DNA of 64,000 nucleotides from Gammaproteobacteria bacterium (GTDB taxonomy: Bacteria > Pseudomonadota > Gammaproteobacteria > Eutrophobiales > Eutrophobiaceae), in assembly GCA_965261165.1 (NCBI GenBank), contig OZ253445.1, positions 1,369,082 to 1,433,081 of the forward strand, given 5' to 3'. This document shows, piece by piece, positions 6,484 to 52,641 of this stretch. Position 1 is the first letter of the stretch. Each line of letters starts with the position of its first letter. The translations under genes were made by a program, and so were the position numbers. The notes under the pieces are model-generated. The model saw only the letters and a list, made by a program, of their open reading frames with translations. It searched no databases and had not been told where the DNA came from.

Positions 6484-6551
6484 GGAAGAAATTCCACAGT
6501 TCTAAAGGACGTAAATGAAAATTCAAAAGTTGCCTGATGCTTCCTATGAGG

Positions 6552-7816
6552 GGACTTGTCGGTTAATAGCCCGAAAGCATGAGATAATAGCCGAAATTCA
6601 AAACGGGTCTTATTGATGCGCAAACGCCAACAAAACACGCTGTTTATAGCACTAGACTGTCTGGTGGTAGCAAACCATCCCTAGCCTAAGCTTGAGGCCT
6701 TATTGTCATTCGATGAGCTGGCCAAACCTTAGGTTAAGCTCTATTCGGTTAAAGGTCATAAAGAAAAGGGGTTGCCTTTGGCTTACGCGCCCTGGTGTTA
6801 CAATTCATGGAAGATAGTAGTGATCGTGAAATGGAACGTTTTTTGCGAATGGATTTTTTTGCAAGAGAACACTTCTGGAACATGCTGTTACCCATTGGGC
6901 TTAGGAGAGAAGACCCCAGATCACAGTAATCTTGGTGATTGTCGAAAACGTGATGATCTTCGAGAACGCTTGGACACAGAAAACTGAATGACGGTTCTTA
7001 ACCGTGTTGGTGAAGAACTGAAGTCTATGGGTTTAATGCGCCAAGTGTTGACCTTTGTTGCTGCCAGTCACTTAGGTGAGTCAGCTAAGCACTTGGGACG
7101 ATAGAGATCGTGCCATTCAGGCCGGTTTAGAGAAGTTTAATCATAAGACCGCTGAAACAATAACGGTTGCTCAGCAGGCACGCTTTGGTGGTAAGGGCGG
7201 TAACAAGTTTTGCTAGGGCGATAAAGAACACATATTGATTGCTAGGCGAAGTGGTTTAATCAATAAGATTGCGGCTACATCGGCGGAAGTTACCGATGCT
7301 GAAGGGCTTGCCCACGTTGCCCCACAGGAGGTGCTTTTTTTGGTGATAAGGGTACTGTGTGAACCTGGGCAAAACCACACTCAAGCGCCAAGGCTGTCAT
7401 GATGCAACGATCAAGCCAGCCAATATGCAAGGCAAAGAGACTAAATAAAGAGCGTTGGCTTGCAGCCATGCGTTCACCTTATGAACGTGTCTTTGCTCAC
7501 CGTAACCGGCGGGTTGGTTATCGTGGTTTGCAGAAGGTGCAATCTCAGGTAGGCATGCGCACACTGACTTTCAACCGCAAAAGAGTGATGACACTGGGTT
7601 TGAAGACATAGATAGATTGGGTTTTGAAGACATCAATTCAATACCTGCCCAGGGTAAATACTAGGGTAAATCTGCCTTAAATTTGCCTAAAGGGCAGACC
7701 TAAGGCACTAATAGCCTAAAATAGCCCATTGGGACTTAAATAAAGCGGACTATTGTCGTTTATTTGAACCAATATTTGCATCTTGACATTGTTTTTCGAT
7801 TAACCGACAAGGCCTT
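6552..7816 (+). mobile_element. IS5-family-like insertion sequence relic (copy 1), about 1.27 kb, with imperfect terminal inverted repeats and a degraded transposase frame
   Basis: It is near-identical to 35990..37276. The ends are GGACTTGTCGGTTAAT on the left and ATTAACCGACAAGGCC on the right. Internal translated fragments resemble IS5-type DDE transposase pieces (DATIKPANMQGKE similar to DATIIEAPSSTKN; FGDKGH similar to ADxGY; RVFAHRNRRVGYRGLQK similar to the IS5 C-terminal motif). They are interrupted by multiple stops and frameshifts, and no ORF exceeds 77 aa. Confidence 0.6.
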
Positions 7817-7839
7817 AATTGTTACACGGAAAATTATTA

Positions 7840-9201
7840 ATGACGACAAAACGACAATCAATTCATGGTCAATGGTCTTCGCGCTGGGCGTTTATCCTGG
7901 CCGCGACGGGTTCTGCTGTCGGTTTAGGCAATATTTGGCGGTTTCCTTACATTACGGGTGAATATGGTGGTGGTGCATTTGTGTTGATGTATCTCGGCTG
8001 CGTTTTACTGGTGGGCATACCGATTATGATATCCGAGGTGTTGCTCGGTCGAAGAGGGCGTCAAAGCCCCATCAACACCATGGAGTCACTGGCCAAGGAA
8101 GAAGGCTTGAATCCGGCATGGCGTTATCTTGGTTGGATGGGTGTCGTTGCTGGTTTTCTCATTCTTTCTTTCTATAGTGTGGTTGCTGGGTGGACATTGG
8201 AATATATCTTTCAGTCGGGCTCAGGTAATTTTCTCACCGCGACTGATGACGAAATCGGTGAGATATTCGATAGCCTGCTAAGAGATCCCGGCCAACTATT
8301 GGCGATGCATACTTTATTTATGGCTCTGACGGTTGTAGTTGTTGCCATGGGCATTAAGAATGGCTTGGAACGTGCGGTTAAATTTCTAATGCCCGCACTT
8401 TTTATCTTGTTATTGATCATGGTGGGCTATGCTATGTCCACTGATGGTTTTCAGGAAGGTCTATATTATTTGTTTTATCCAGATTGGAGCAAGTTATCCG
8501 GCGAAGGCTTCTTGGTGGCATTGGGCCAGGCATTTTTTAGTCTGAGTCTGGGGATGGGTGCGATTATGGTTTATGGATCTTATCTGCCTGATGATGCTTC
8601 GATTGGACATACGTCGGTCAATATTGCTTTGGTCGATATGCTCGTAGCCATAATGTCTGGACTCGCTATATTTCCGCTGGTTTTTGCGTACGGTTTGGAT
8701 CTTAGCGAGGGTCCGGGCTTGATATTTGTGACGTTGCCGATTGCCTTTGGTCAAATGCCCTATGGGCAGATATTTGGCACGGGTTTCTTTATCTTGTTGA
8801 TGTTTGCCGGATGGACTTCATCAATTTCCTTGCTTGAACCTGCCGTCACCTGGTTAGTAGAAAATCGCGGTATTGCCAGAACCAAATCAGCAGCGATCAC
8901 GGGATTGATTGCATGGACTTTGGGTATCGGTTCTGCCCTATCCTTTAATCTTTGGCAAGACTACAAAATATTCGACAAAACCTATTTTCATATCATGGAC
9001 TATGTAACCTCGAATATATTGTTGCCTCTCGGAGGGTTACTCATCGCTGTCTTTGCCGCATGGTTAATGTCGAAAAAATCCCTAGCATCAGAACTTGGTT
9101 TGGGAGGAGGGTTTTTATTTCATGCCTGGTTATTTGTCCTTCGTTTTGTCACACCTATCGGTGTAGTTGCTATATTTCTACATGCGATTGGTATTATTTA
9201 A
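7840..9201 (+). CDS. sodium-dependent transporter, neurotransmitter:sodium symporter (NSS/SNF) family
   Basis: The product has the motif WSSRWAFILAATGSAVGLGNIWRFPY plus about 12 TM segments. The start was moved to the internal ATG at 7840 within the 7819 ORF. Confidence 0.85.
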   Translation: MTTKRQSIHGQWSSRWAFILAATGSAVGLGNIWRFPYITGEYGGGAFVLMYLGCVLLVGIPIMISEVLLGRRGRQSPINTMESLAKEEGLNPAWRYLGWMGVVAGFLILSFYSVVAGWTLEYIFQSGSGNFLTATDDEIGEIFDSLLRDPGQLLAMHTLFMALTVVVVAMGIKNGLERAVKFLMPALFILLLIMVGYAMSTDGFQEGLYYLFYPDWSKLSGEGFLVALGQAFFSLSLGMGAIMVYGSYLPDDASIGHTSVNIALVDMLVAIMSGLAIFPLVFAYGLDLSEGPGLIFVTLPIAFGQMPYGQIFGTGFFILLMFAGWTSSISLLEPAVTWLVENRGIARTKSAAITGLIAWTLGIGSALSFNLWQDYKIFDKTYFHIMDYVTSNILLPLGGLLIAVFAAWLMSKKSLASELGLGGGFLFHAWLFVLRFVTPIGVVAIFLHAIGII

Positions 9202-9945: not shown

Positions 9946-10203
9946 TATTTTTTTCAATATCCGGATGATTGGCATCACCAATGCGTGTGATTGATTTTAC
10001 TGCTGCTGGATAATTACCGTATTCGTCAACGCTGACTATTTTTTCAGCACCCCGCCGAATATATTAATTCGGTAATATAATGATCTGAAAAGATTTTTAA
10101 AAATTGGATAATGCTTAAAATTCTTCTTCTATTTATTCGAGGACTTCAAAATCGCGTTTGACTTTGTCCGCATCCCATTCATTGACTTCTTCTGCCAAGG
10201 CTT

Positions 10204-10740
10204 CTAATTCTTTCTGAGTTTCTTCATCTCTGGTTTCGTCGGCTTTTTTTTGAGTTCTTCATCACTGCCGAACCAATCATCAAAGAAGCCACTGAAGAAA
10301 CCTTCTTTTTTTCTTGTATCTGTAATGAGAATATTTAAAGACTCGTTAGCATCTTCTTCGGAATGTTTAGAACCATGTGTAATGTCACCTTCAAGATGCG
10401 TTAGTTTATCGTTTTTAAAAAATAAAGCGACGTGACGTTGAGCACGCTCACCATCACCTGGCTCGTTACTGTAGATATAATCCCAACGATTACTATGAAA
10501 AGAATCAGCCAGTAATGGTGTGCCCATAATAAATTTAACTTTTGCTCTGGTCATTCCAGGTTCGAGTTTATTTATCATCGACTGTTCAATGACATTGCCC
10601 TGCTGGACATCAATACGGTAAACAAATGGTATTTTGAGACTGCCGTCAGGGCGCCGATCACAACCAGTAATATGACTGGAAATAAAGACAAAAAGAACAA
10701 TAAGTAATATGATTTTATTCAACAAAAATTCCTGATTCAA
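10204..10740 (-). CDS. bamE: outer membrane protein assembly factor BamE (SmpA/OmlA) with an acidic C-terminal extension
   Basis: It has a signal peptide plus lipobox (LIVLFVFISSHITGC). It contains IDVQQGNVIEQSMINKLEPGMTRAKVKFIMGTP and HSNRWDYIY, the BamE core. It sits opposite ratAB and next to fur as in Pseudomonas (omlA-fur). Confidence 0.8.
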   Translation of the reverse strand: MNQEFLLNKIILLIVLFVFISSHITGCDRRPDGSLKIPFVYRIDVQQGNVIEQSMINKLEPGMTRAKVKFIMGTPLLADSFHSNRWDYIYSNEPGDGERAQRHVALFFKNDKLTHLEGDITHGSKHSEEDANESLNILITDTRKKEGFFSGFFDDWFGSDEELKKKPTKPEMKKLRKN

Positions 10741-10863
10741 AAACCTGTGATGTCTAAAGCGGGTAGATTGTATCGTAATGTAAAGGACACGTCATACCCC
10801 AAAACTACTCTTTCAAGTTAGCAACACACAAACTGTCCAGTTTTCATAGTATCCCGAGGAGGG

Positions 10864-11943
10864 GTGCTTATGAGACGGACAGAATGGTTACAGGAGACTC
10901 GATTGATGAGATTCGAGGAAGCTTATAGAGGCTGGACGGAGAGCCATCTAACCCAAGAGGCGGCGGCGTTATTGCTGGGTGTTTGTGCCCGGACATTTCG
11001 TCGCTACATAGATCAATATAAAGACGAGGCCTGGAGAGGGTCTCATCGACAAACGCTTATCGCAGGTAACGCCCTGGTCGACGAGGTCATGCGCATGGTG
11101 GACTGCTATCGCAGCCGACACGAGGGCTGGAATGTAAAGCACCACTACCACGCTTGGTACAAACGAGACGGCAGTCAGCACAGCTACTCGTGGGTAAAAC
11201 AGTCACTGCAAGCGGCTGGTGCCGTAAACAGCGTGATCGGTCACCCTGGTGATCGGTCACCCTGGCCGGGATGATGTTGCATCAGGACGGCAGTCAAGCA
11301 TTTATGGGTACCGGACAGTACTGGGATCTGATTGTCACTATGGATGATGCACCAATGAACCCTGCTCAATGTTCTTCTGCGATGAGGTAAGGAACGCAGA
11401 GCAGTTTTCAGGGTGTTGGTGACGTCATCGAAGGTCAGGGGGGCTGTTTTGCTCTTTGTAGACAGACCGAGGCAGCCATTACTGGACTACGGGAGGCGGA
11501 TGGGAAAGCAGACTAGGCGAACCTGACCCAGTTTGGGCGGGCTATGGGCCAATTAGGCATTGAGATGATCCTGGTCTATTCGCCAGAGGCTAGAGGCGGT
11601 TCCGAGCGTGTATTCAGCACGCACTAGGATCGCCTGGGCAAAGAATTGGCTCTGGGAATTGGCTCTGGTGGGCATCACGGATATAGAAGAAGCCAATACC
11701 CATCTGGCAGAGACCTACCTACCAGCTTACAACGTGGAGTTTACACAGCCGCCGCCAGAAGATGGCTCAGCCTTTGTGGCGTGCCGGGATTTATCGGTGC
11801 TGGATGACATCCTGGGCGAGCGTTTCGAGCGGACGGTGAGAAAGGACAACTATGTGCACTTTGAAGGACGGGTATTGCAGATCCCAGCAGATCGTCACCG
11901 CTGCCATTATGTGAAGGCGAAGATCCGGGTTCTGCGTTTATAG
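10864..11943 (+). pseudogene. ISNCY-family (IS1202/ISPlu15-like) transposase pseudogene, broken into at least 3 frames
   Basis: The N-terminal frame 10864..11274 begins MRRTEWLQETRLMRFEEAY...TFRRYIDQY (HTH). The middle carries HQDGS..WDLIVTMDDA in another frame. The C-terminal frame 11608..11943 reads NYVHFEGRVLQIPADRHRCHYVKAKIRVL. All are typical of ISNCY transposases. A 17-bp tandem duplication (GTGATCGGTCACCCTG x2) lies at about 11237..11270. Confidence 0.6.
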
Positions 11944-12110
11944 CGATGGTAGCTTATCCATTCACCACAGCCCCGGGAGCTGGCAAGGTATGACGCCCTA
12001 AGGTCATGAGCTCTCAGATAAACTACTGGTTGCAGTATTAATGTCTGCGGCTCAGCCGGTAGTTGCGAGGCACCTCTGGGAGCCTTCTAGCAATCAAACC
12101 AAAAGCGGAC

Positions 12111-12144
12111 AATCGTGGATAATCCCAATCGTGGATAATCTATG
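12111..12144 (+). promoter_or_regulatory. candidate Fur box (autoregulation) upstream of fur
   Basis: A direct repeat AATCGTGGATAATC x2 contains GATAAT hexamers of the Fur-box consensus (GATAATGATAATCATTATC). It is about 120-150 bp upstream of the fur start. Confidence 0.4.
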
Positions 12145-12261
12145 TGTTACAGAACTGGATATTTCTATTTGTTGCTAACACGTAGGCGCATAGATCATGA
12201 CATCGGCATGTGATTTCAGTATAATTGGCCGACGATTTTGCTCATCCTAAGGAGCCATTAA

Positions 12262-19310: not shown

Positions 19311-20426
19311 ATGGCAAAACGAGATTATTACCAAGTACTAGGTGTGCCAAAGAACGCGACAGATGTTGAATTAAAAAAAGCGTACCGACGATTGGCGATG
19401 AAATATCACCCGGATCGGAATGAGGGAGATGCATCAGCGGAAGAAAAGTTCAAGGCAGCAAAAGAAGCCCACGATATATTATCTGATGAGCGTAAGCGCG
19501 CTGCCTATGATCAGTTCGGTCAGGCAGGCGTTGATAATAGTGCAGGCTCGGGTGCTGGTGGTGCTGGCGTCGGTGATATATTTGATAGTGTTTTTGGTGA
19601 CATCTTTGGTGGTGGTGGCAGACAACGTGTTTATCGCGGTGCTGATTTACGTTATGACATGGAATTAAGTCTGGAAGATGCTGTTGCTGGGACCACAGTC
19701 AAAATCAGAATACCAAAATTTGTCGAATGTAATGGCTGCATTGGCTCAGGCGCAAAAAAAGGCAGTACGCCAACAACTTGTCCTACTTGTACAGGTCAGG
19801 GACAGGTACGTATGCAACAGGGATTTTTTTCCTTGCAGCAAACTTGCCCGCAATGCCGTGGACAAGGTAAGATTATTAAAGATCCTTGTAGCGCTTGTCA
19901 TGGACAAGGTCGGATCAAAGACACGAAAACAATTTCAGTAAAGGTGCCTCCTGGTGTTGATAATGGAGATCGCATTTGTTCATCAAATGAAGGTGAAGCT
20001 GGTGAAAATGGAGGCCCCCCAGGTGATCTGTATGTACATGTGAATATAAAAGATCATGCGATCTTTACTAGGGATGATATCCATCTCCATTGTAATGTGC
20101 CGATCAGCTACACAACCGCAGCATTGGGCGGTGAATTAGAAGTGCCAACATTAGGGGGTCGGGTAAAGCTGGTGATTCCTGCTGAAACCCAGAGTGGAAA
20201 ATTATTGCGTCTGCGAGGTAAGGGGGTAAAATCAGTGCGTTCTTCTTCTAAAGGAGATTTGCTCTGTCGTGCTATCGTAGAGACACCAGTCAATCTGACT
20301 AAAGAACAAAAGGGAATACTCAAAGATCTTGAACGTGCCATGGGACAGGGAGGAACAAAACATAGCCCGCAAGCTTCATCATGGTTGAATGGAGTCAAGA
20401 AATTCTTTGATGATATGACGAGTTAA
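19311..20426 (+). CDS. dnaJ: molecular chaperone DnaJ
   Basis: The product has a J domain (DYYQVLGV...HPDRN), a Gly-rich linker and four CxxCxGxG zinc-finger repeats. Confidence 0.95.
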
Positions 20427-20428
20427 AT

Positions 20429-20476
20429 TTTAAGATCAAGATTAAGATCAAGATTAAGATCAAGATCAAGATCATG
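20429..20476 (+). repeat. short tandem repeat (AAGATC-based 6/12-mer units) immediately downstream of the dnaJ stop
   Basis: The sequence reads TTAAGATCAAGA x3, then TCAAGATCAAGATCATG. Confidence 0.7.
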
Positions 20477-20806
20477 GGAACACTGATGATTTAATGACTT
20501 GATTGAAACAGATAGGTTAATGTTAATATCCTAGTCTCTTTTGTATGCCAAGATAGGGACGACTGCATATTACAAGTGGTTATCATCATGTTATGGGCCG
20601 TGGACTTGATGGTGGTGATGTGTTAAAGGGGGCATATTAATGGCATTGAAGGGTTTTAGGGTTTTAGCTAAACCCATGGCTAGGTAAATTTAAAGGAATG
20701 CACCCAACAACATTAGCGAAGATATGTATGAATTAGTATTGAAAATAATTAGAAATCACCCGCTGTTCTAGGGATAACCCTGAATTAATAAAGCTGATAA
20801 ATATTC

Positions 20807-21610: not shown

Positions 21611-21782
21611 AAATAATATTAGAGTTAAGTGACCGAGTGATTAGCGAGACCATGACTTGAGCGAATTGTTATGGTTATTTCTCATTTAATTTTTGATTCT
21701 AATGATTTAATGTCACCAACAACCCATAAGTTTTGAATCTTGTTGCCTTTGAAATGAAATAAGGCCAAACCATTCTTATGGT

Positions 21783-21980
21783 TTGATAGTATCAACCGTG
21801 ATTGCTGCCTCATTCGCATTTATGTTGCCAGTTGCTACATCTCCAAACGCAATTATTTCAGTAGTCGTAATGATGAAAGCGGATATATGGTTAAATCTTC
21901 TGGGTTCTGTATTGATAATATTTTTTGTCATGTTTCTGTTACCTACTGTTGGGGGGGATAGACATACAAGTATTTCCTGA
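21783..21980 (+). pseudogene. C-terminal remnant of an anion permease (ArsB/NhaD/DASS superfamily)
   Basis: Only the last roughly 60 codons are present. They contain the FMLPVATSPNAII signature (LPxATPPNA) typical of the last TM hairpin of DASS/ArsB-type permeases. There is no upstream coding continuation, and the start is a TTG by default. Confidence 0.45.
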
Positions 21981-21993
21981 AATATATGTAATG

Positions 21994-22146
21994 TAGAGAT
22001 CTTTGCGTAATTCACGCTGATTCTACCGAAACAGACAAAATTAAGACTATTCTAATAAACCTTAAAGATTATTCATCCATGTCCTAGGAAAAAGTCCTAG
22101 GAAATAATATCTTAAAAAAACTGCCCAAGGTTGGTTCGCAGATAAA
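21994..22146 (+). repeat. partial copy (copy C, about 150 bp) of noncoding repeat family R3
   Basis: It aligns with 60048..60200, with about 80-85% identity by eye: AGAGAyCTTTGCrTAATyCACrCTrATTCTACCGAAACAG...ACCTTAAAGATTATTCATCCAT...AAAAACTGCCCAAGGTTsGTTCGCAGATA. Confidence 0.7.
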
Positions 22147-22289
22147 GATAATAACTAGAATAAACAATAACCAGAGAGACAATTAAGTGGTTGAACCTAC
22201 CTTGCTGATGGCAATGAGTCATCAGCTTAAATCATTCATCACCTTTAGAGAGGGGAAGGGAATGAACCTACAGTAACAAATACGTTATC

Positions 22290-22438
22290 TGTAGATGTAT
22301 TGTGTCTGAATGCTCGATAATGGATAAGTAATAACTAAAACACGCTCATTGAGGGGTTTTATGCTATTGCTGTGACGATTAAAGGAGAATTCTCGCAAAA
22401 TGAAACTGTTTCATACAAACTTTATAAATTAATGCTAT
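22290..22438 (-). repeat. inverted copy of 150-bp repeat family R2
   Basis: The reverse complement is identical, apart from about one mismatch, to 35850..35987. That sequence reads TTATAAAGTTTGTATGAAACAGTTTCATTTTGCGAGAATTCTCC...CATCTACA and contains the palindrome ATGAAAC-AG-GTTTCAT. Confidence 0.8.
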
Positions 22439-22684
22439 TGCCTATACGTCTTATTCAGTGGTTTTGAATGATGTGAAGGTTTCATGAAGAAAATTTTGCC
22501 TAAGCTTTCAGGAACTATCTTGCTTTAATCGCTTCGACTTTCTTATTCCATTTATCCAAGGCTTTCTGATAATAAACAAAGACGCAATTAACACAGTTGC
22601 GTTGACAACATTCAGATAATTCCGGCTCCCTTGGTTTGAGTGGGAGCCCATTTGAGTTATTAGCCTCTGCGGACATGTCGCCTT

Positions 22685-35989: not shown

Positions 35990-37276
35990 GACTTATCGAT
36001 TAATAGCTCGAAACATGAGATGACCCGACATGCAAAACGGGTCTTATTGATGCGCAAACACCAACAAAATAGGTTGTTTATAACACTAGACGATCTTATA
36101 GCAGCAGAGCATCCCTAGCCTAAGCTTGAGGCCTTATTGTCATTCGATGAGCTGGCTAAACCTTAGGTTAAGCTCTATTCGGTTAAAGGTCATAAAGAAA
36201 AAGGGGTGGCCTTTGGCTTACGCGCCCTGGTGTTACAATTCATGGAAGATATGAGCGCTCGTGAAATGGAATGTTTTTTGCGAATGGATTTTTTTGCAAG
36301 AGAATGTTCTTTGCAAGAGAACATTTCTGGAACATGCTGTTACCCATTGGGCTTAGGAGAGAAGACCCCAGATCACAGTAATCTTGGTGATTGTCGAAAA
36401 CGTGATGATCTTCGAGAACGCTTGGACACAAAAAACTGAATGGCGATTCTTAACCGTGTTGGTGAAGAACTGAAGTCTATGGATTTAATGCGCCAAGTGT
36501 TGACCTTTGTTGCTGCCAGTCACTTAGGTGAGTCAGCTAAGCACTTGGGACGATAGAGATCGTGCCATTCAGGCCGGTTTAGAGAAGTTTAATCATAAGA
36601 CCGCTGAAACAATAACGGTTGCTCAGCAGGCACGCTTTGGTGGTAAGGGCGGTAACCAGTTTTGCTAGGGTGATAAAGAACACATATTGATTGCTAGGCG
36701 AAGTGGTTTAATCAATAAGATTGCGGCTACATCGGCGATAATAACCGATGCTGAAGGACTTGCTCACGTTTGCCCCACAGGAGGTGCTGTCTTTGGTGAT
36801 AAGGGGCACTGTGTGAACCTGGGCAAAACCACCATCAAGCGCAAGGGCTGTCATGATGCCACGATCAAGCCAGCCAATATGCAAGGCAAAGAGACTAAAT
36901 AAAGAGCGTTGGCTTGCAGCCATGCGTTCAGCCTATGAACGTGTCTTTGCTCACCGTAACCGGCGGGTTGGTTATCGTGGTTTGCAGAAGGTGCAATCTC
37001 AGTAGGCATCCGTGTACTGACTTTCAACCGCAAAAGAGTGATGACACTGGGTTTGAAGACATAGATAGATTGGGTTTTGAAGACATCAATTCAATACCTA
37101 CCCAAGGTAAATACCAAGGCAAATACTAGGGTAAATCCGCCTTCCATTTACCTAAAGGGCAGACCTAAGGCACTAATAGCCTAAAATAGCCCATTGGGCC
37201 TTAAATAAAGCGGACTTATTGTCGTTTATTTGAACAAATATTTGCATTTTGACATTGTTCTAGATTAACCGACAAG
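35990..37276 (+). mobile_element. IS5-family-like insertion sequence relic (copy 2), about 1.29 kb
   Basis: It is colinear and near-identical with 6552..7816, including the same frame disruptions. Its ends are GGACTTATCGATTAAT and ATTAACCGACAAGGCC. A few small indels separate it from copy 1, for example a GAATGTTCTTTGCAAGA duplication. Confidence 0.6.
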
Positions 37277-38882: not shown

Positions 38883-39086
38883 ATGGCTATGGGTACAGTG
38901 AAATGGTTTAACGATAGTAAAGGTTTCGGATTTATTACACCAGATGATGGCAGTGCAGATGTATTTGTTCATCATAGTTCTATTAATGCCGAAGGATTCA
39001 AGTCTCTCTCTGAAGGTCAGGCTGTAAGTTTTGATGTTGAGATGGGCGCTAAAGGTCCAAGTGCATCCAACGTGACTGCGCAATAG
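38883..39086 (+). CDS. cspA: cold-shock protein CspA family
   Basis: The product contains [15 protein letters not shown] (RNP1) and VFVHHS (RNP2). It is 67 aa. Confidence 0.95.
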
Positions 39087-39132
39087 AAGAATAGGCTAGA
39101 AGTTTTTAGCATATTTTTTAGCATATGAAAGA

Positions 39133-39157
39133 GGCCTCGTAATGTGAGGCTTTTTTT
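39133..39157 (+). terminator. Rho-independent terminator after cspA, possibly bidirectional
   Basis: The stem GAGGCCTC...GAGGC is followed by TTTTTTT. It lies between convergent cspA and the GGDEF gene. Confidence 0.55.
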
Positions 39158-39220
39158 ATGGAGAATAAATATTGAGGTCGAGCGCCTGATTAAGCAGCCT
39201 ATGATTTATTCTTGAGAAAT

Positions 39221-40012
39221 TTATGATTTATTCTTGAGAAATTCGATGGTATTCCCACCTTTCTCTTTTGCTATTACTAATGCTTTATCTGCGATAGCTA
39301 TAATTTCATGGACATCTAGTTCATCGCCTGCACTGGGCTTGACTTCTGTAATACCTATACTGACAGTTAAATTGATTACTCCATCCTCACTGCCAGTATC
39401 AAATTTTTCTCCTTCTATGACGGAGCGCAATCTTTTTGACACAAACATGGTTGGTTTAATATCTGTTTCAGGCAAAAGACAAATATATCTATCGCTATCA
39501 CGCGCTATGATATCAGTCGCTCTTAAGTCATCTCTGAGGATTTCTGCGGTATCCTGAAAGATTTCGTCACTAACTTGACGTCCATATTTTTCTTTCATTT
39601 TATTATACTCATCAATTTCTACTACAGCACAGCAAAAGACTCTATCGTAACGTTTTGCCCTGACCATCTCGTTTTGAAATAAAGAATCAAAATGCGTCTT
39701 GGTATAGAGCTGGGTTAATGCATCTGTGATGGCCATGAACTGCATTTTGAGAAAAGTTTCGTACTGCTTCTTTACCAATTTTCTGACGTACAAATAAGCC
39801 GTTAACAGGAAAATAATAAGGACAATGCCTCCAGTCGTAGCGATAATACTTGGATCTGCAAGTTGTTTCTCGTAAACGATCAATCCTATAATTGCGATAA
39901 AAATAGGCATCAGGAAGAAGATGCTTATTTTCTGAGTAATTGGCACCTTAAGGTTTGGCTGATTTGATAGTTCAAGGTTTGGCTGATTTGATAGTTCTTC
40001 GTTATCAGGCAC
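39221..40012 (-). CDS. membrane-anchored GGDEF-domain protein with a degenerate active site (SDRYI in place of GG[DE]EF)
   Basis: It has 2 N-terminal TM segments. The GGDEF fold is recognisable (QLYTKTHFDSL, RAKRYDRVFCCAVVEID, LTVSIGIT, ADKALVIAKEKGGNTIEF), but the motif position reads ARDSDRYICLLPET. Confidence 0.7.
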   Translation of the reverse strand: MPDNEELSNQPNLELSNQPNLKVPITQKISIFFLMPIFIAIIGLIVYEKQLADPSIIATTGGIVLIIFLLTAYLYVRKLVKKQYETFLKMQFMAITDALTQLYTKTHFDSLFQNEMVRAKRYDRVFCCAVVEIDEYNKMKEKYGRQVSDEIFQDTAEILRDDLRATDIIARDSDRYICLLPETDIKPTMFVSKRLRSVIEGEKFDTGSEDGVINLTVSIGITEVKPSAGDELDVHEIIAIADKALVIAKEKGGNTIEFLKNKS

Positions 40013-40634
40013 TGAAAGACCCCCTCCCTAATCAAAAGAAATTTGAATCTGTATTTTAAAATCTTAACTCGTAAGCAACAGATAATAACACTATTAATGT
40101 GACGATATTATCACAGATATGTCTCATTCTGACCTAACAAAATGTTGTAAATTGAATTTAGGGCAAGCTCGTTAATTACTGATATTGCAATGGCATCTTA
40201 CTACATATTTAAAGTAGCGAGAACAATTCCGCTTAATGAAATGGAAAACGGTATTGTGATTTTTAAGTTGAAATTCATTTAGACGGGAAAATAGTTAAAC
40301 AGGATATGGGTTAGCCGCGTTTCAAATAATTCATTCATTGGTGGGCAATGTATATGACTCATGCGCCCTGATGTAATTAGCTGTGTTTTTAATTGAGAGC
40401 TTCGCATAAATCAACTTAGCGACAAAATGTTCCTGATTTTTTGTCAAAAACCGGTCATTAGCTTGTTAAAAACGACATTTTTGTCGCAATAGGAACAGGT
40501 TTAATCTCTCTTCTGTCAACATTTTGAATTATGTAAAGGTCTCTAATTATTTTATTTAAAATTATTTCAATGATAAATCAATGTTACATTATAATGTATA
40601 ATTTCCTTATTTAAATCAAACTTTTATATCTTTT

Positions 40635-41702
40635 ATGACCTCTGAATTAAAAAATGATCGGTTTATCCGGGCATTACTCCGACAATCTGTTGATGTCACG
40701 CCTGTCTGGATGATGCGGCAGGCTGGCCGTTACTTACCTGAGTATAGGAAGACTCGAAAACGGGCTGGTAATTTCTTAAATTTGTGTAAAACACCAGAGT
40801 TGGCTTGCGAGATCGCCTTACAACCACTTGAGCGCTACTCATTGGATGCTGCAATCCTTTTTTCAGATATCCTGACCATTCCTGATGCGATGGGGCTTGG
40901 ATTGAACCTTATTGAGAAAGTTGGCCCTCAGTTTGATAAACCGGTGAGGACAGCAAGTGAAATTAGAGTCTTATCAGTCCCTGATCCTGAATCCGATCTA
41001 GGTTATGTGATGGATGCAGTCAGGCTAATTCGTAAAGAATTGGATGGTCGTGTGCCGTTGATTGGTTTCTCCGGCAGTCCGTGGACATTGGCAACCTATA
41101 TGGTTGAGGGTGGGCCGACCAAGGAATTTGGCCTAGTTAAAGGGTTGATGTATGACGACCCTGCGTCTATGTATCATTTATTAGATGTTCTGGCAGATTC
41201 CATTGTTTTGTATCTGAATGCACAGATTGCAGCAGGCGCTCAAGCGGTCATGATTTTTGATACCTGGGGTGGAATTTTAACTCCGGCAAGTTACCAACAA
41301 TTTTCCTTGCAATACATGCAGAAGATAGTGAGTCAGCTTGATCGAGAGTATGATGGACAAGTGATACCTGTAACATTGTTTACCAAAGGTGGTGGTGACT
41401 GGATCAAGGATATTGCAGCCACAGGATGTGATGCTATTGGCGTTGATTGGAGCAAAAACATGAATGATGCCCGTTCTGAAGTTGGTAATCAGGTGGCTTT
41501 GCAGGGTAATCTTGATCCCTGCGTTTTATATGCTTCTCCCGAAGTGATTAAACGGGAAATTGCTACAGTACTGGAAAGTTTTGGGCACGGGAATGGCCAT
41601 GTATTTAATCTCGGACATGGCATACATCAACATATTGATCCTGAAAATGTTGCTGTTTTTGTCAACGCAGTGCATGAATTGAGTGGGCAGTATCACACAT
41701 AA
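40635..41702 (+). CDS. hemE: uroporphyrinogen decarboxylase
   Basis: The product contains [31 protein letters not shown]. Confidence 0.95.
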
Positions 41703-50400: not shown

Positions 50401-51116
50401 ATATTAGCATTAAGGTGTCATCAAAAGGAAAGAATACACTCCAACTTAAACATGGGTTGAGTGGACAGGCCAAACTTGCCGTAACAAAAGGTATTTTGCG
50501 TGGTATTGATATCAGGAAAACTCTGGAACAAGCGGAGGTGTTGCTTGAGAGCAAGCGACTTGGGACAGTGAAGCAAGGTGGTGAAACCCGATTCGAGCAA
50601 TTAACGGGCACATTGAATATCAAGGATGGTGTGGTTAAAAATGATGATCTGTTAATGACGGCGCCTGGTTTCAGGGTTAATGGTGGTGTTGATAAAAGAG
50701 ACACGCTCGGGAATCTTCGTAATAACTCTATTAAATATAACCTGAGCGTTGCTGTCGTCGAAGAAAACGTAGTGCGCGGCGAAGAAAATTATAATATTGG
50801 TGGTTATGTGATTCCTATTAGATGCCGTGGCTCATTGGACGATCTTGCCGGAGCCTGTAAACCTGATTATGGGAAGCTTCTGAGTGCGGCTGTTCAAAAA
50901 GGTGCGCTCGATAAATTAGGGGAAGTAATTAATATAGGCATTTCAGGTAAAAACGAATCAACTGTGGATTCTGGCACAACAAGCACTGGCACAACAAGCA
51001 CTGGCACAACTACGACAAAAGAATCATCTCAGCAGGAAGTAACACCAGAGTCGAAAGATCCTGCAAAGGAACTGATCGATAAAGCGCTGGAAGGTGTCTT
51101 CGATAAACTATTTTAG
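47469..51116 (+). CDS. AsmA-family outer-membrane biogenesis protein, unusually long (1215 aa) with internal module repeats
   Basis: It has an N-terminal TM anchor plus an AsmA N-domain ([30 protein letters not shown]). Several roughly 150-200-aa segments recur ([15 protein letters not shown]...; ..[16 protein letters not shown]..). It carries an AsmA-like C-terminal region and a (GTTST)x3 low-complexity tail encoded by a 15-bp tandem DNA repeat at about 50975..51020. Confidence 0.75.

Positions 51117-52565: not shown

Positions 52566-52641
<76 letters not shown>

Follow-up and report, generated by a model that had tools for sequence, protein, structure and literature searches.

A membrane-anchored degenerate GGDEF protein with a conserved I-site, and short tandem duplications at its locus in an eroding gammaproteobacterial genome

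Organization of the locus

The 64-kb window (the whole stretch of DNA that was analyzed) contains a monocistronic gene for a GGDEF protein, which is preceded by a G-rich ribosome-binding site (AGGGAGGGGG) located 5′ of its start codon and is convergent with cspA. The following features were located in the window.

39221..40012, reverse strand: GGDEF-protein gene, 263 aa, GTG start, TAA stop (open reading frame list)
39872..39928, reverse strand: transmembrane helix 1, residues 29-47, ISIFFLMPIFIAIIGLIVY (hydrophobic stretch; model helix H25-48)
39785..39847, reverse strand: transmembrane helix 2, residues 56-76 (translation; model helix H54-99)
39251..39733, reverse strand: GGDEF domain, residues 94-254 (Pfam; Foldseek)
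39512..39523, reverse strand: RxxD I-site motif R164-A-T-D167 (aligned with the RxxD of 3ign, 6zxm, 4zve and PleD)
39485..39499, reverse strand: degenerate signature DSDRY, residues 172-176, at the GGEEF position (HMMER alignments; wider-clade alignment; family counts)
39431..39433, reverse strand: R194, equivalent of PleD I-site R390 (alignment to PleD; 34/34)
39134..39150, no strand assigned: GC-rich hairpin with an A run on one side and a T run on the other (terminator scan; conserved in 7 orthologous loci)
40013..40145, reverse strand: conserved upstream region, promoter and 5′ UTR (alignments)
40255..40353, reverse strand: remnant of a DUF4442 gene, N-terminal part (matches to orthologous locus L020: E = 1.7e-4 by tblastn, 73.6% over 72 bp by blastn)
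10733-12195 and ~36200-37130: insertion sequence (IS) relics

The hairpin is probably a bidirectional terminator shared by the convergent cspA and GGDEF genes. Conserved RNA structure was not supported in the ~135-nt upstream region (RNAalifold covariation term -0.45), and Rfam searches of the window at gathering thresholds returned only a tRNA at 52573, with no riboswitch or known RNA near the gene.

Gene order in orthologous loci L020, L018, and L007 points to the deletion of nine genes (5.9 kb) between hemE and the GGDEF gene, with a junction at ~40145-40255, ~135 bp upstream of the latter. Homology to the orthologues stops at ~40145, and the DUF4442 relic constitutes the hemE-side edge of the deleted block. 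Together with deletions of 2.3 and 3.2 kb, each of the three being accompanied by a relic, and with the two IS relics, this loss is a sign of erosion, and the locus is an ordinary gene in a decaying genome. The neighbors in orthologous loci L018-L020 are a 151-aa secreted protein, cspA, and yaaA. The gene for the 151-aa protein, which is located upstream of the orthologues and encodes a signal-peptide-like N-terminus, matched no Pfam family and is deleted in the window; it was rejected as a functional partner.

Protein architecture and the degenerate active site

The GGDEF domain was detected by Pfam PF00990 (E = 8e-25; 87.9 bits, cut-off 23.8; profile positions 1-160 of 161) and by the NCBIfam model TIGR00254 (E = 1.4e-30; 106.2 bits, cut-off 37.4). 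In an AlphaFold2 model of moderate confidence (mean pLDDT 69; ∼75-85 in the GGDEF domain and <50 for residues 1-24) the predicted fold is GGDEF/nucleotidyl-cyclase-like, and Foldseek aligned it with the GGDEF structures of DosC, PleD, WspR, and GcbC (probability 1.0, target TM-score 0.83-0.86, rmsd 2.7 Å). The reading frame, the two transmembrane helices and the Pfam match bear out the preliminary description of a membrane-anchored 263-residue protein with a GGDEF fold. It would be a small inner-membrane protein consisting of a cytoplasmic N-terminal tail, two transmembrane helices separated by an 8-residue loop, a stalk helix and the GGDEF domain. Helix 2 runs on as the stalk helix into the GGDEF domain, and the sequence RKLVKK comes after it. 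No EAL, DHH or other output domain is attached. Scores for GdpS- and GdpP-type proteins were below threshold (GGDEF_GdpP 22.4 bits, cut-off 30; NF047872 GdpS 48.5, cut-off 400), and every NCBIfam equivalog model scored far under its cut-off.

The motif and ligand positions were mapped using HMMER alignments to solved cyclases (3ign, 6zxm, and 4zve) and to PleD, the numbering of which agreed with published residue numbers. These alignments place GGEEF opposite D172-S173-D174-R175-Y176; the replacement of the motif by SDRYI, as originally proposed, is therefore correct with respect to its degeneracy and off by one in its register. The Tyr preceding the signature is deleted in this subfamily, as is evident from the HMMER alignments and the wider clade. 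Across the 34 orthologues the successive signature positions are D/E, D/G/E/S, D/N, R/K, and F (typically D[DGES][DN][RK]F), and the GG(D/E)EF signature of active diguanylate cyclases is thus degenerate in the family as well as in the window protein.

The PleD ligands D327, N335, D344, E370, E371, K442, and R446 correspond to E132, K140, D149, D174, R175, K249, and G253, respectively; the changes N335 to K, E371 to R, and R446 to G make three of these seven positions incompatible. The pattern is family-wide, the E371 position being R or K in 34/34, the R446 position G in 33/34 and the N335 position K in 25/34; the E370 position is D or N among the 34 orthologues, and the position of PleD G368 is likewise replaced across the family. 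Part of the substrate pocket is kept, since the equivalents of D344 (D149) and R366 are conserved in 34/34 and the D327 position is E in 34/34. The catalytic inactivity proposed in the preliminary description remains a reasonable prediction in view of the family-wide replacements at the positions of PleD G368, E371, N335, and R446, and c-di-GMP synthesis would be beyond this protein. Hypr GGDEF cGAMP synthases have an otherwise active site in which the guanine-binding Asp (PleD D344) is a Ser (PMC7288161); assignment to this group was rejected because the Asp (D149 here) persists in 34/34 and the signature is a dead one.

The I-site and predicted function

The I-site comprises the RxxD motif, R390, and R313 of a partner domain (PMC7288161). 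R164, D167, and R194 are invariant in 34/34 orthologues, R118, which is equivalent to the partner-domain arginine R313 of PleD, is R or K in 34/34, and RxxD is present in 16/16 sequences of the wider two-helix clade. Owing to the loss of the Tyr, the motif is located 4 residues before the signature in this subfamily, as against 5 in the wider clade, which could distort the I-site pocket. The dead signature, the RxxD motif and the additional arginines are the sequence features of degenerate-GGDEF I-site receptors of the PelD, PssE, YdaK, and PopA type, and all are present. Since the I-site residues are kept in 34/34 although the family is just 56-72% identical overall, c-di-GMP binding is the favored prediction, and this conserved, membrane-anchored dead GGDEF protein probably senses c-di-GMP instead of making it. 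Binding at the I-site would then be relayed as a signal to a membrane partner, as in PelD, PssE, and YdaK. No linked partner was found, polysaccharide, glycosyltransferase or synthase genes being absent from the window and from the orthologous loci read. The target operon typical of membrane-bound I-site receptors is likewise absent, the neighbors in the window being yaaA, the convergent cspA, and hemE. This receptor reading was judged from 64 kb of genome and presupposes that the organism makes c-di-GMP.

The preliminary description had suggested a c-di-GMP-independent sensor, effector or scaffold. A dead GGDEF domain could indeed function as a scaffold, or its remnant active site could bind GTP or a different nucleotide, for which the conserved part of the substrate pocket (the D344 and R366 equivalents and E at the D327 position, each in 34/34, with D or N at the E370 position), the sub-threshold matches to GGDEF_GdpP and GdpS and the documented repurposing of such domains, namely the GTP-sensing GGDEF domain of CC3396 and the ATPase GGDEF domain of YybT/GdpP (PMC7288161), can be cited. 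However, such a role leaves the invariance of three I-site residues and of the R313 equivalent without a reason, and nucleotide sensing in particular sits poorly with a protein that has no output domain and matches GdpP and GdpS only far under the cut-offs. We therefore regard this proposal as rather unlikely, and a c-di-GMP receptor resembling PelD, PssE or YdaK as more likely on the residues conserved. It is also conceivable that the gene has taken the first steps toward becoming a pseudogene, with an N-terminal duplication, a C-terminal nonsense change and lost upstream neighbors, given that its surroundings are eroding (the 5.9-kb deletion ends ∼135 bp away), that a CAG-to-TAG change has left the protein three C-terminal residues (QAA) shorter than the orthologues and that three duplications and IS relics are close by. 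Against this, the reading frame is intact, the ribosome-binding site is kept and both coding changes fall in poorly conserved termini. The divergence of the GGDEF protein relative to that of YaaA (ratio ∼2.0-2.7) is also inside the range of other lineages (1.75-4.1). A relative-rate comparison with YaaA and CspA revealed no acceleration in this lineage, on which ground decay was rejected. With all 43 family-invariant residues present in the window protein and a divergence, scaled to YaaA, similar to that seen in other lineages, the gene does not appear to be decaying, and incipient pseudogenization is considered improbable.

The family comprises 33 orthologues at 51-65% identity to the window protein. 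When genome contigs were scanned with the family alignment only two orthologous loci were recovered, both in metagenome-assembled genomes, and an exact-pattern scan of the contigs with the single protein gave no match.

Tandem duplications at the locus

Three perfect tandem duplications are found at or beside the gene.

39950..39997, reverse strand: 24-bp duplication, AAGGTTTGGCTGATTTGATAGTTC x2, in frame
39200..39243, reverse strand: 22-bp duplication, TATGATTTATTCTTGAGAAATT x2, across the stop codon
39103..39126, forward strand: 12-bp duplication, TTTTTAGCATAT x2, past the cspA stop codon and short of the shared terminator

The first two had been described previously as perfect, at about 39953..40000 and 39201..39244; both are, at the slightly different positions given here. 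Through the 24-bp duplication ELSNQPNL occurs twice, as residues 6-13 and 14-21, within the cytoplasmic N-terminal tail, which is disordered. In the 22-bp duplication the copy on the gene-body side carries the last seven codons, and the TAA stop (39221..39223) is created at the duplication junction; as the single-copy state would give TAG, this duplication leaves the protein unchanged. The sole effect of the three duplications on the protein is thus eight extra residues in the disordered N-terminal tail. The third duplication, which was missed earlier, lies in the cspA 3′ UTR, 75 bp from the 22-bp duplication, at a position where the orthologues have a gap.

All three are absent from 7/7 orthologous DNA loci, and the 24-bp duplication is absent from 33/33 orthologous proteins. 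The comparison with orthologues that had been proposed thus agrees with the claim that the duplications are recent, in that they are perfect and the seven loci lack them, and their absence from those loci indicates that they arose in this lineage. The microhomology events suggested for their origin are not borne out, microhomology being 0 bp at the three junctions.

Duplications across the window

Eight perfect duplications with units of 12-24 bp were counted in the 64-kb window, versus zero expected from Markov shuffles for units of at least 12 bp. The unit lengths listed across the window, nine in all, are 12, 12, 13, 14, 15, 16, 16, 22, and 24 bp, those at the six further sites being 12, 13, 14, 15, 16, and 16 bp, and junction microhomology is 0-1 bp window-wide. 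In a comparison set of ∼125 kb a single event was detected in 103 kb of related loci and none in the 22-kb dnaK locus of a relative; a binomial test against the 103 kb alone gives P = 0.003. Tandem Repeats Finder (TRF) reported 21 arrays, against 5.0 in shuffles.

The duplications in the window all lie between genes or in an IS pseudogene, or else keep the reading frame. The five units with lengths that are not a multiple of three all lie outside intact coding sequence, for which the chance under random placement is by our arithmetic 0.18^5, or ∼2e-4, and the two in intact genes are 24 and 15 bp. The 15-bp duplication sits in an AsmA-like gene. One IS transposase pseudogene contains a 16-bp and a 13-bp duplication; removal of the duplicate copies leaves three in-frame stops, and these duplications were consequently rejected as the sole lesions of the transposase reading frame. 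A uniform null gives P = 0.03 for three events inside 900 bp and P = 0.00025 for two clusters of this kind in the window, and some local hot-spot effect may contribute to the cluster.

Origin of the duplications

Insertion or excision of something at this locus, as initially proposed, would make the repeats target-site footprints of a mobile element at both gene ends. Perfect direct repeats without microhomology do look like target-site duplications, IS relics are present in the window and the locus did undergo rearrangement. The target duplications of bacterial IS elements are, however, usually far shorter than the 22- and 24-bp units found here, and seven unit lengths among nine events are at odds with the fixed length produced by one element. 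Neither an element sequence nor terminal inverted repeats were detected at or between 39103-39243 and 39950-39997, so that element ends or relics are lacking at the site along with a fixed length, and clean excision would have had to happen twice, independently, at the one gene. Duplications of the same kind occur at six other, selection-tolerated sites in the window, and the bracketing of this one gene does not reach significance once selection is built into the null (P = 0.11-0.19). What stands of the proposal is that something was lost, namely the 5.9-kb, nine-gene block; its junction is 150-250 bp from the nearest duplication, and the duplications do not mark it. Footprints of a mobile element are accordingly given hardly any credence.

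Assembly or polishing artifacts of a long-read metagenome-assembled genome are also very improbable, although the window is part of one 2.13-Mb contig from an uncultured gammaproteobacterium and none were seen in the regions of sister genomes that were compared. Artifacts would not be expected to obey selection, as these duplications do, with non-3n units avoiding intact genes and in-gene events in frame (∼2e-4). Most open reading frames in the window are intact, indicating high consensus quality, and imperfect, older tandem arrays are in excess as well. The gaps between events (410, 467, 97, and 750 bp) show none of the periodicity expected from polishing windows, and a polishing-window artifact was rejected because of this irregularity.

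The duplications are best explained, on the sequence comparisons above, as recent and effectively neutral tandem-duplication insertions rather than mobile-element scars. A lineage-specific, genome-wide process would copy 12-24 bp head to tail without junction microhomology, and the copies would survive only where selection tolerates them, that is, in intergenic DNA, pseudogenes and 3′ UTRs, or within tolerant protein tails if the frame is kept; this locus would have collected three such events by happenstance in an eroding genome. The combined account, in which a dead GGDEF I-site receptor has acquired recent neutral duplications from such a genome-wide process in an eroding genome, is the best joint explanation and a reasonably probable one. 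We suggest more tentatively, as a possibility that falls short of probable, that the mutational process is itself unusual, its rate exceeding by an order of magnitude the rate in sister genomes from this uncultured lineage of gammaproteobacteria. A possible cause would be that erosion of the genome removed a repair function that processes flaps or ends.

Relationship to known systems

PelD of Pseudomonas aeruginosa is an inner-membrane protein whose GGDEF site is dead and whose intact RxxD binds c-di-GMP (PMC7288161). The window protein resembles it in its membrane anchor, cytoplasmic dead GGDEF domain and intact RxxD. PelD differs in having four transmembrane helices, a GAF domain and a pel polysaccharide operon, whereas the window protein has two helices and no GAF domain, its gene stands by itself beside cspA and hemE, and the two proteins are not orthologues by sequence. 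PssE of Listeria monocytogenes binds c-di-GMP with a Kd of 0.79 µM (PMC4125290), and binding is also shown for YdaK of Bacillus subtilis, which requires its RxxD (PMC5422440). These two are likewise membrane-anchored degenerate GGDEF proteins (DKDDA and SDERI, respectively, the latter resembling DSDRY) with RxxD shortly upstream of the motif, although by 5 residues in place of the 4 in the window subfamily. Both lie in polysaccharide operons that they activate, an arrangement seen neither in the window nor in the orthologous loci whose genes were read, and YdaK has four helices. The best sequence and fold matches are to active cyclases (PleD, WspR, DosC, SiaD, and DgcB), which share the stalk-helix-plus-GGDEF layout and the I-site; unlike these, the window protein lacks GG(D/E)EF and the equivalents of N335, E371, and R446.

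A degenerate GGDEF domain that keeps its I-site belongs to a well-known class of receptors and short tandem duplications are a common insertion mutation, so that by itself the result carries little weight. The proteins do form a coherent clade in uncultured marine gammaproteobacteria, with about ten representatives at 50% identity. Its members are small degenerate GGDEF proteins with two helices, in which the I-site is invariant and to which no target is linked, and it would be a compact system suited to the question of what a stand-alone I-site receptor controls.

The window in turn displays a clear excess of microhomology-free 12-24-bp duplications over sister genomes, beside multi-kb deletions and IS relics, and where they lie shows that selection has sorted insertions by both their location and their effect on the reading frame. 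If the mutational process is indeed unusual, the genome would be a natural model for the origin of short tandem duplications in bacteria and for the way in which they give rise to new peptide repeats, with ELSNQPNL x2 and the 15-bp repeat of the AsmA-like gene as examples. In bacterial pseudogenes that evolve neutrally, direct repeats are produced by about half of all insertions (PMC6054270). The reductively evolving leaf-nodule symbionts Ca. Burkholderia offer a parallel in their pseudogenes, IS activity and direct-repeat insertions (PMC6054270), but have few insertions of >15 nt, compared with the 12-24-bp units found here at a density clearly above that of sister genomes.

Gene Context and Architecture of the GGDEF Protein

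The degenerate-GGDEF membrane protein is encoded between cspA and hemE, in the following arrangement.

Features of the GGDEF locus
38883..39086: cspA, convergent with the GGDEF gene
39134..39150: conserved hairpin, common to the ends of cspA and the GGDEF gene
39221..40012, minus strand: GGDEF gene, 263 aa, GTG start
40635..41702: hemE, divergent from the GGDEF gene

Residues 94-254 match the Pfam GGDEF profile over nearly its full length (E = 8e-25; 87.9 bits, cut-off 23.8), and a TIGR00254 match concurs with this assignment. The domain is preceded by 28 N-terminal residues, two hydrophobic helices (I29-Y47 and I56-V76) separated by an 8-residue loop, a basic RKLVKK segment and a long helix. 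Tail, helices and domain are reproduced in an AlphaFold2 model computed from the 34 family sequences (mean pLDDT 69; domain ∼75-85; residues 1-24 below 50), and the modelled domain superposes on the solved GGDEF domains of DosC, PleD, WspR, and GcbC (Foldseek probability 1.0, target TM-score 0.83-0.86). The membrane helices and short loop are conserved in the family, with L51 and P54 almost invariant, which hints at a membrane partner. In the ribosome-binding region (40013..40035) the GTG start is preceded by AGGGAGGGGG, in place of AGGAGA(A/G) in all orthologues; the stretch to the start codon is ∼6 nt longer than in these and would represent a further small lineage-specific insertion, at the gene start.

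Catalytic Motif and I-site

The preliminary description was right that the GG(D/E)EF signature is replaced, but its reading of the motif as SDRYI is one residue out of register. HMMER alignment of the protein to solved cyclases leaves a one-residue gap at the signature. The Tyr preceding the motif is kept in the wider clade of two-helix relatives found with the family profile (ARYDxxKF), so that the gap corresponds to this Tyr and GGEEF aligns with D172-S173-D174-R175-Y176 (DSDRY). Catalytic and I-site positions were mapped onto PleD, using a PleD sequence whose residue numbers agreed with PMC7288161.

PleD positions, window residues and family conservation (34 sequences)
D327: E132; E in 34/34
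N335: K140; K in 25/34
D344: D149; D in 34/34
R366: R171; R in 34/34
E370: D174; D in 29, N in 5
E371: R175; R or K in 34/34
K442: K249; K in 27/34
R446: G253; G in 33/34

The replacements are family-wide, indicating that the catalytic machinery has been lost in the entire family, and the window protein is predicted to be catalytically inactive.

The allosteric c-di-GMP pocket (I-site) is preserved. R164 and D167 of the RxxD motif and R194 (PleD R390) are kept in all 34 sequences, the position of R118 (PleD R313) is occupied by R or K in every one, and RxxD is invariant in the wider clade too. Since overall identity within the family is just 56-72%, and the protein evolves faster than the neighbouring YaaA, this invariance points to c-di-GMP binding at the I-site; the c-di-GMP-independent role proposed previously is rated less likely. 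Established membrane-anchored degenerate-GGDEF precedents are PelD (PMC7288161), PssE (motif DKDDA, Kd 0.79 μM; PMC4125290), and YdaK (motif SDERI, RxxD required; PMC5422440). The genes for these three receptors lie inside polysaccharide operons, unlike the window gene; no polysaccharide genes were found beside the GGDEF family in the window or in the orthologous loci whose gene content was read.

The 2.41-Mb sister genome encodes a second small GGDEF paralogue with a membrane anchor (19873..20562 of locus L020), ∼9 kb from the GGDEF orthologue and sharing 40% identity with the window protein. It has the degenerate motif GEYSF and RVHD as its RxxD; the window showed no counterpart.

Tandem Duplications

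Eight perfect tandem duplications with a unit of at least 12 bp and one near-perfect case were found in the window, where shuffles lead one to expect zero perfect ones.

Tandem duplications in the window
11233: 16-bp unit, IS-transposase relic
11643: 13-bp unit, IS-transposase relic
12110: 16-bp unit, near-perfect, 1.9 copies, IS-transposase relic
20430: 12-bp unit, three copies, dnaJ-dapB spacer
39103..39126: 12-bp unit, TTTTTAGCATAT x2, perfect, cspA 3′ UTR (stop to terminator)
39200..39243: 22-bp unit, TATGATTTATTCTTGAGAAATT x2, perfect, across the GGDEF stop codon into the 3′ UTR, protein unaltered
39950..39997: 24-bp unit, AAGGTTTGGCTGATTTGATAGTTC x2, perfect, in frame in the GGDEF N-terminal tail, repeating ELSNQPNL (residues 6-13 and 14-21)
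50971: 15-bp unit, in frame, C-terminal part of an AsmA-family protein
57309: 14-bp unit, directly upstream of a gene start

The perfect duplications reported at both ends of the GGDEF gene are thus present, and the 12-bp case beyond the cspA stop had been missed. DNA alignment across GGDEF, cspA, and yaaA covered seven orthologous loci (75-77% identity), and in all seven every one of the three extra copies falls exactly opposite a gap. The second ELSNQPNL is absent from 33 of 33 orthologous proteins, the single-copy state having the family length; the three duplications are, from these comparisons, derived in the window lineage. On the gene strand, copy 1 of the 22-bp unit comprises the seven terminal codons plus the first two bases (TA) of the stop codon, copy 2 providing the final A; a single copy would give a TAG stop and an identical protein. 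Where orthologues end ...AAA TCC CAG GCC GCT TAA, the window reads AAA TCA TAG GCT GCT TAA, so a CAG-to-TAG change trimmed three residues before this duplication arose.

The protein retains all 43 family-invariant residues, it has diverged, relative to YaaA, to a degree usual for the family, and the two coding changes are confined to the disordered N-terminal tail and the last three residues. On these grounds the gene is considered functional rather than decaying.

Two duplications elsewhere have additional features. The perfect 15-bp repeat CTGGCACAACAAGCA (50971..51010, 2.67 copies), near the C-terminus of the 1215-aa AsmA-family protein, is tolerated owing to a unit length divisible by three. 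The dnaJ-dapB spacer (20425..20787) measures 363 bp vs. 69 bp in sister genomes, and its three perfect 12-bp copies overlap an AAGATC hexamer array (∼seven copies).

Genome Erosion

The window genome is that of an uncultured gammaproteobacterium whose best named DnaK relatives are MAGs (at most 93% identity), and its contig measures 2.13 Mb vs. 2.31 and 2.41 Mb in two sister genomes. In the 2.41-Mb relative, VCA0040 and hemE lie on one strand; diverging from hemE on the opposite strand are the DUF4442, PpnN, rhodanese, DUF6116, Chalcone_3, alpha/beta hydrolase, Cupin_8, 84-aa, 151-aa, and GGDEF genes, with cspA and yaaA convergent with GGDEF. The window order is yaaA, cspA, GGDEF, and directly hemE, the nine intervening genes having been lost.

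Deletions and IS relics in the window
40146..40634: ∼5.9-kb deletion vs. sister genomes; DUF4442 N-terminal relic at 40255..40353 (tblastn E = 1.7e-4)
9946..10100: 2.3-kb deletion vs. sister genomes (FecCD, ABC ATPase, periplasmic binding protein); relic 9949..10078
21611..22684: 3.2-kb deletion vs. sister genomes (DUF3095, NUDIX, Na-sulphate symporter); relic 21775..21987
10733..12195: IS transposase relic inserted between bamE and fur, absent from sister genomes
near 36206: DUF772 (IS5-type) transposase fragment, in short broken ORFs (36126..37130)

The relic at 10733..12195 contains three in-frame stops, which make it a pseudogene irrespective of its 16-, 13-, and 16-bp duplications. Imperfect tandem arrays of 17 and 12 bp also occur in the 36126..37130 region, which probably represents another decayed IS. 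Homology to the orthologues' GGDEF upstream region stops at ∼40145, and the 5.9-kb deletion junction falls at or beside the ancestral promoter region of the GGDEF gene. Immediately upstream of GGDEF on the same strand, three orthologous loci encode a protein of 151-152 aa that matches no Pfam family and whose N-terminus resembles a signal peptide (L020 9384..9839; L018 9365..9823; L019 2942..3400), deleted in the window. In 6484..7818 and 7819..9201, the best stretch of an SNF-family symporter ORF covers only profile positions 170-480 of 524, and 1.3 kb lacking long ORFs lies upstream; truncation or a frameshift may have affected the 5′ end of this gene.

Origin and Clustering of the Duplications

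Intact coding sequence is free of all duplication units that are not a multiple of three. Noncoding and pseudogene DNA makes up ∼18% of the window, and by simple arithmetic the probability of all five such units landing there at random is ∼2e-4; this placement favours genuine mutations that passed through selection over random assembly error. The suggestion that they are footprints of insertion or excision of a mobile element is rejected, as unit lengths vary between events, unlike target-site duplications of one element, and the deletion junction lies 150-250 bp from the 24-bp duplication, which is therefore not its scar. Junction microhomology is 0-1 bp in every case, the three events near the GGDEF gene having none. 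About half of insertions in neutrally evolving bacterial DNA are of the direct-repeat type (PMC6054270); the duplications belong to this ordinary, neutral type and occur here, in an eroding genome, at unusual frequency and with unusual length. In ∼125 kb of non-redundant DNA from relatives, perfect duplications with a unit of at least 10 bp number one in 103 kb of related loci and zero in a 22-kb dnaK locus (binomial test against the window on the 103 kb alone, P = 0.003). TRF arrays of period at least 10 number 21 in the window, 5.0 in shuffles and 10 in the relatives' 103 kb, the last being near chance.

Under uniform placement, at least three of eight events fall within 900 bp with P = 0.03, and two clusters of this kind (with the IS relic included) with P = 0.00025; restricting placement to tolerated space gives P = 0.11-0.19 and 0.001-0.004, respectively, so that the bracketing of the GGDEF gene is not significant alone. 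Across the window as a whole, some of the local clustering remains incompletely accounted for. By GC skew, the plus strand would be the leading strand, in which case the GGDEF gene is transcribed head-on to replication, beside cspA. Indels are reported to be raised near collision sites in replication-transcription conflicts (PMC7451550), and such conflict is offered only as a possible contributor.
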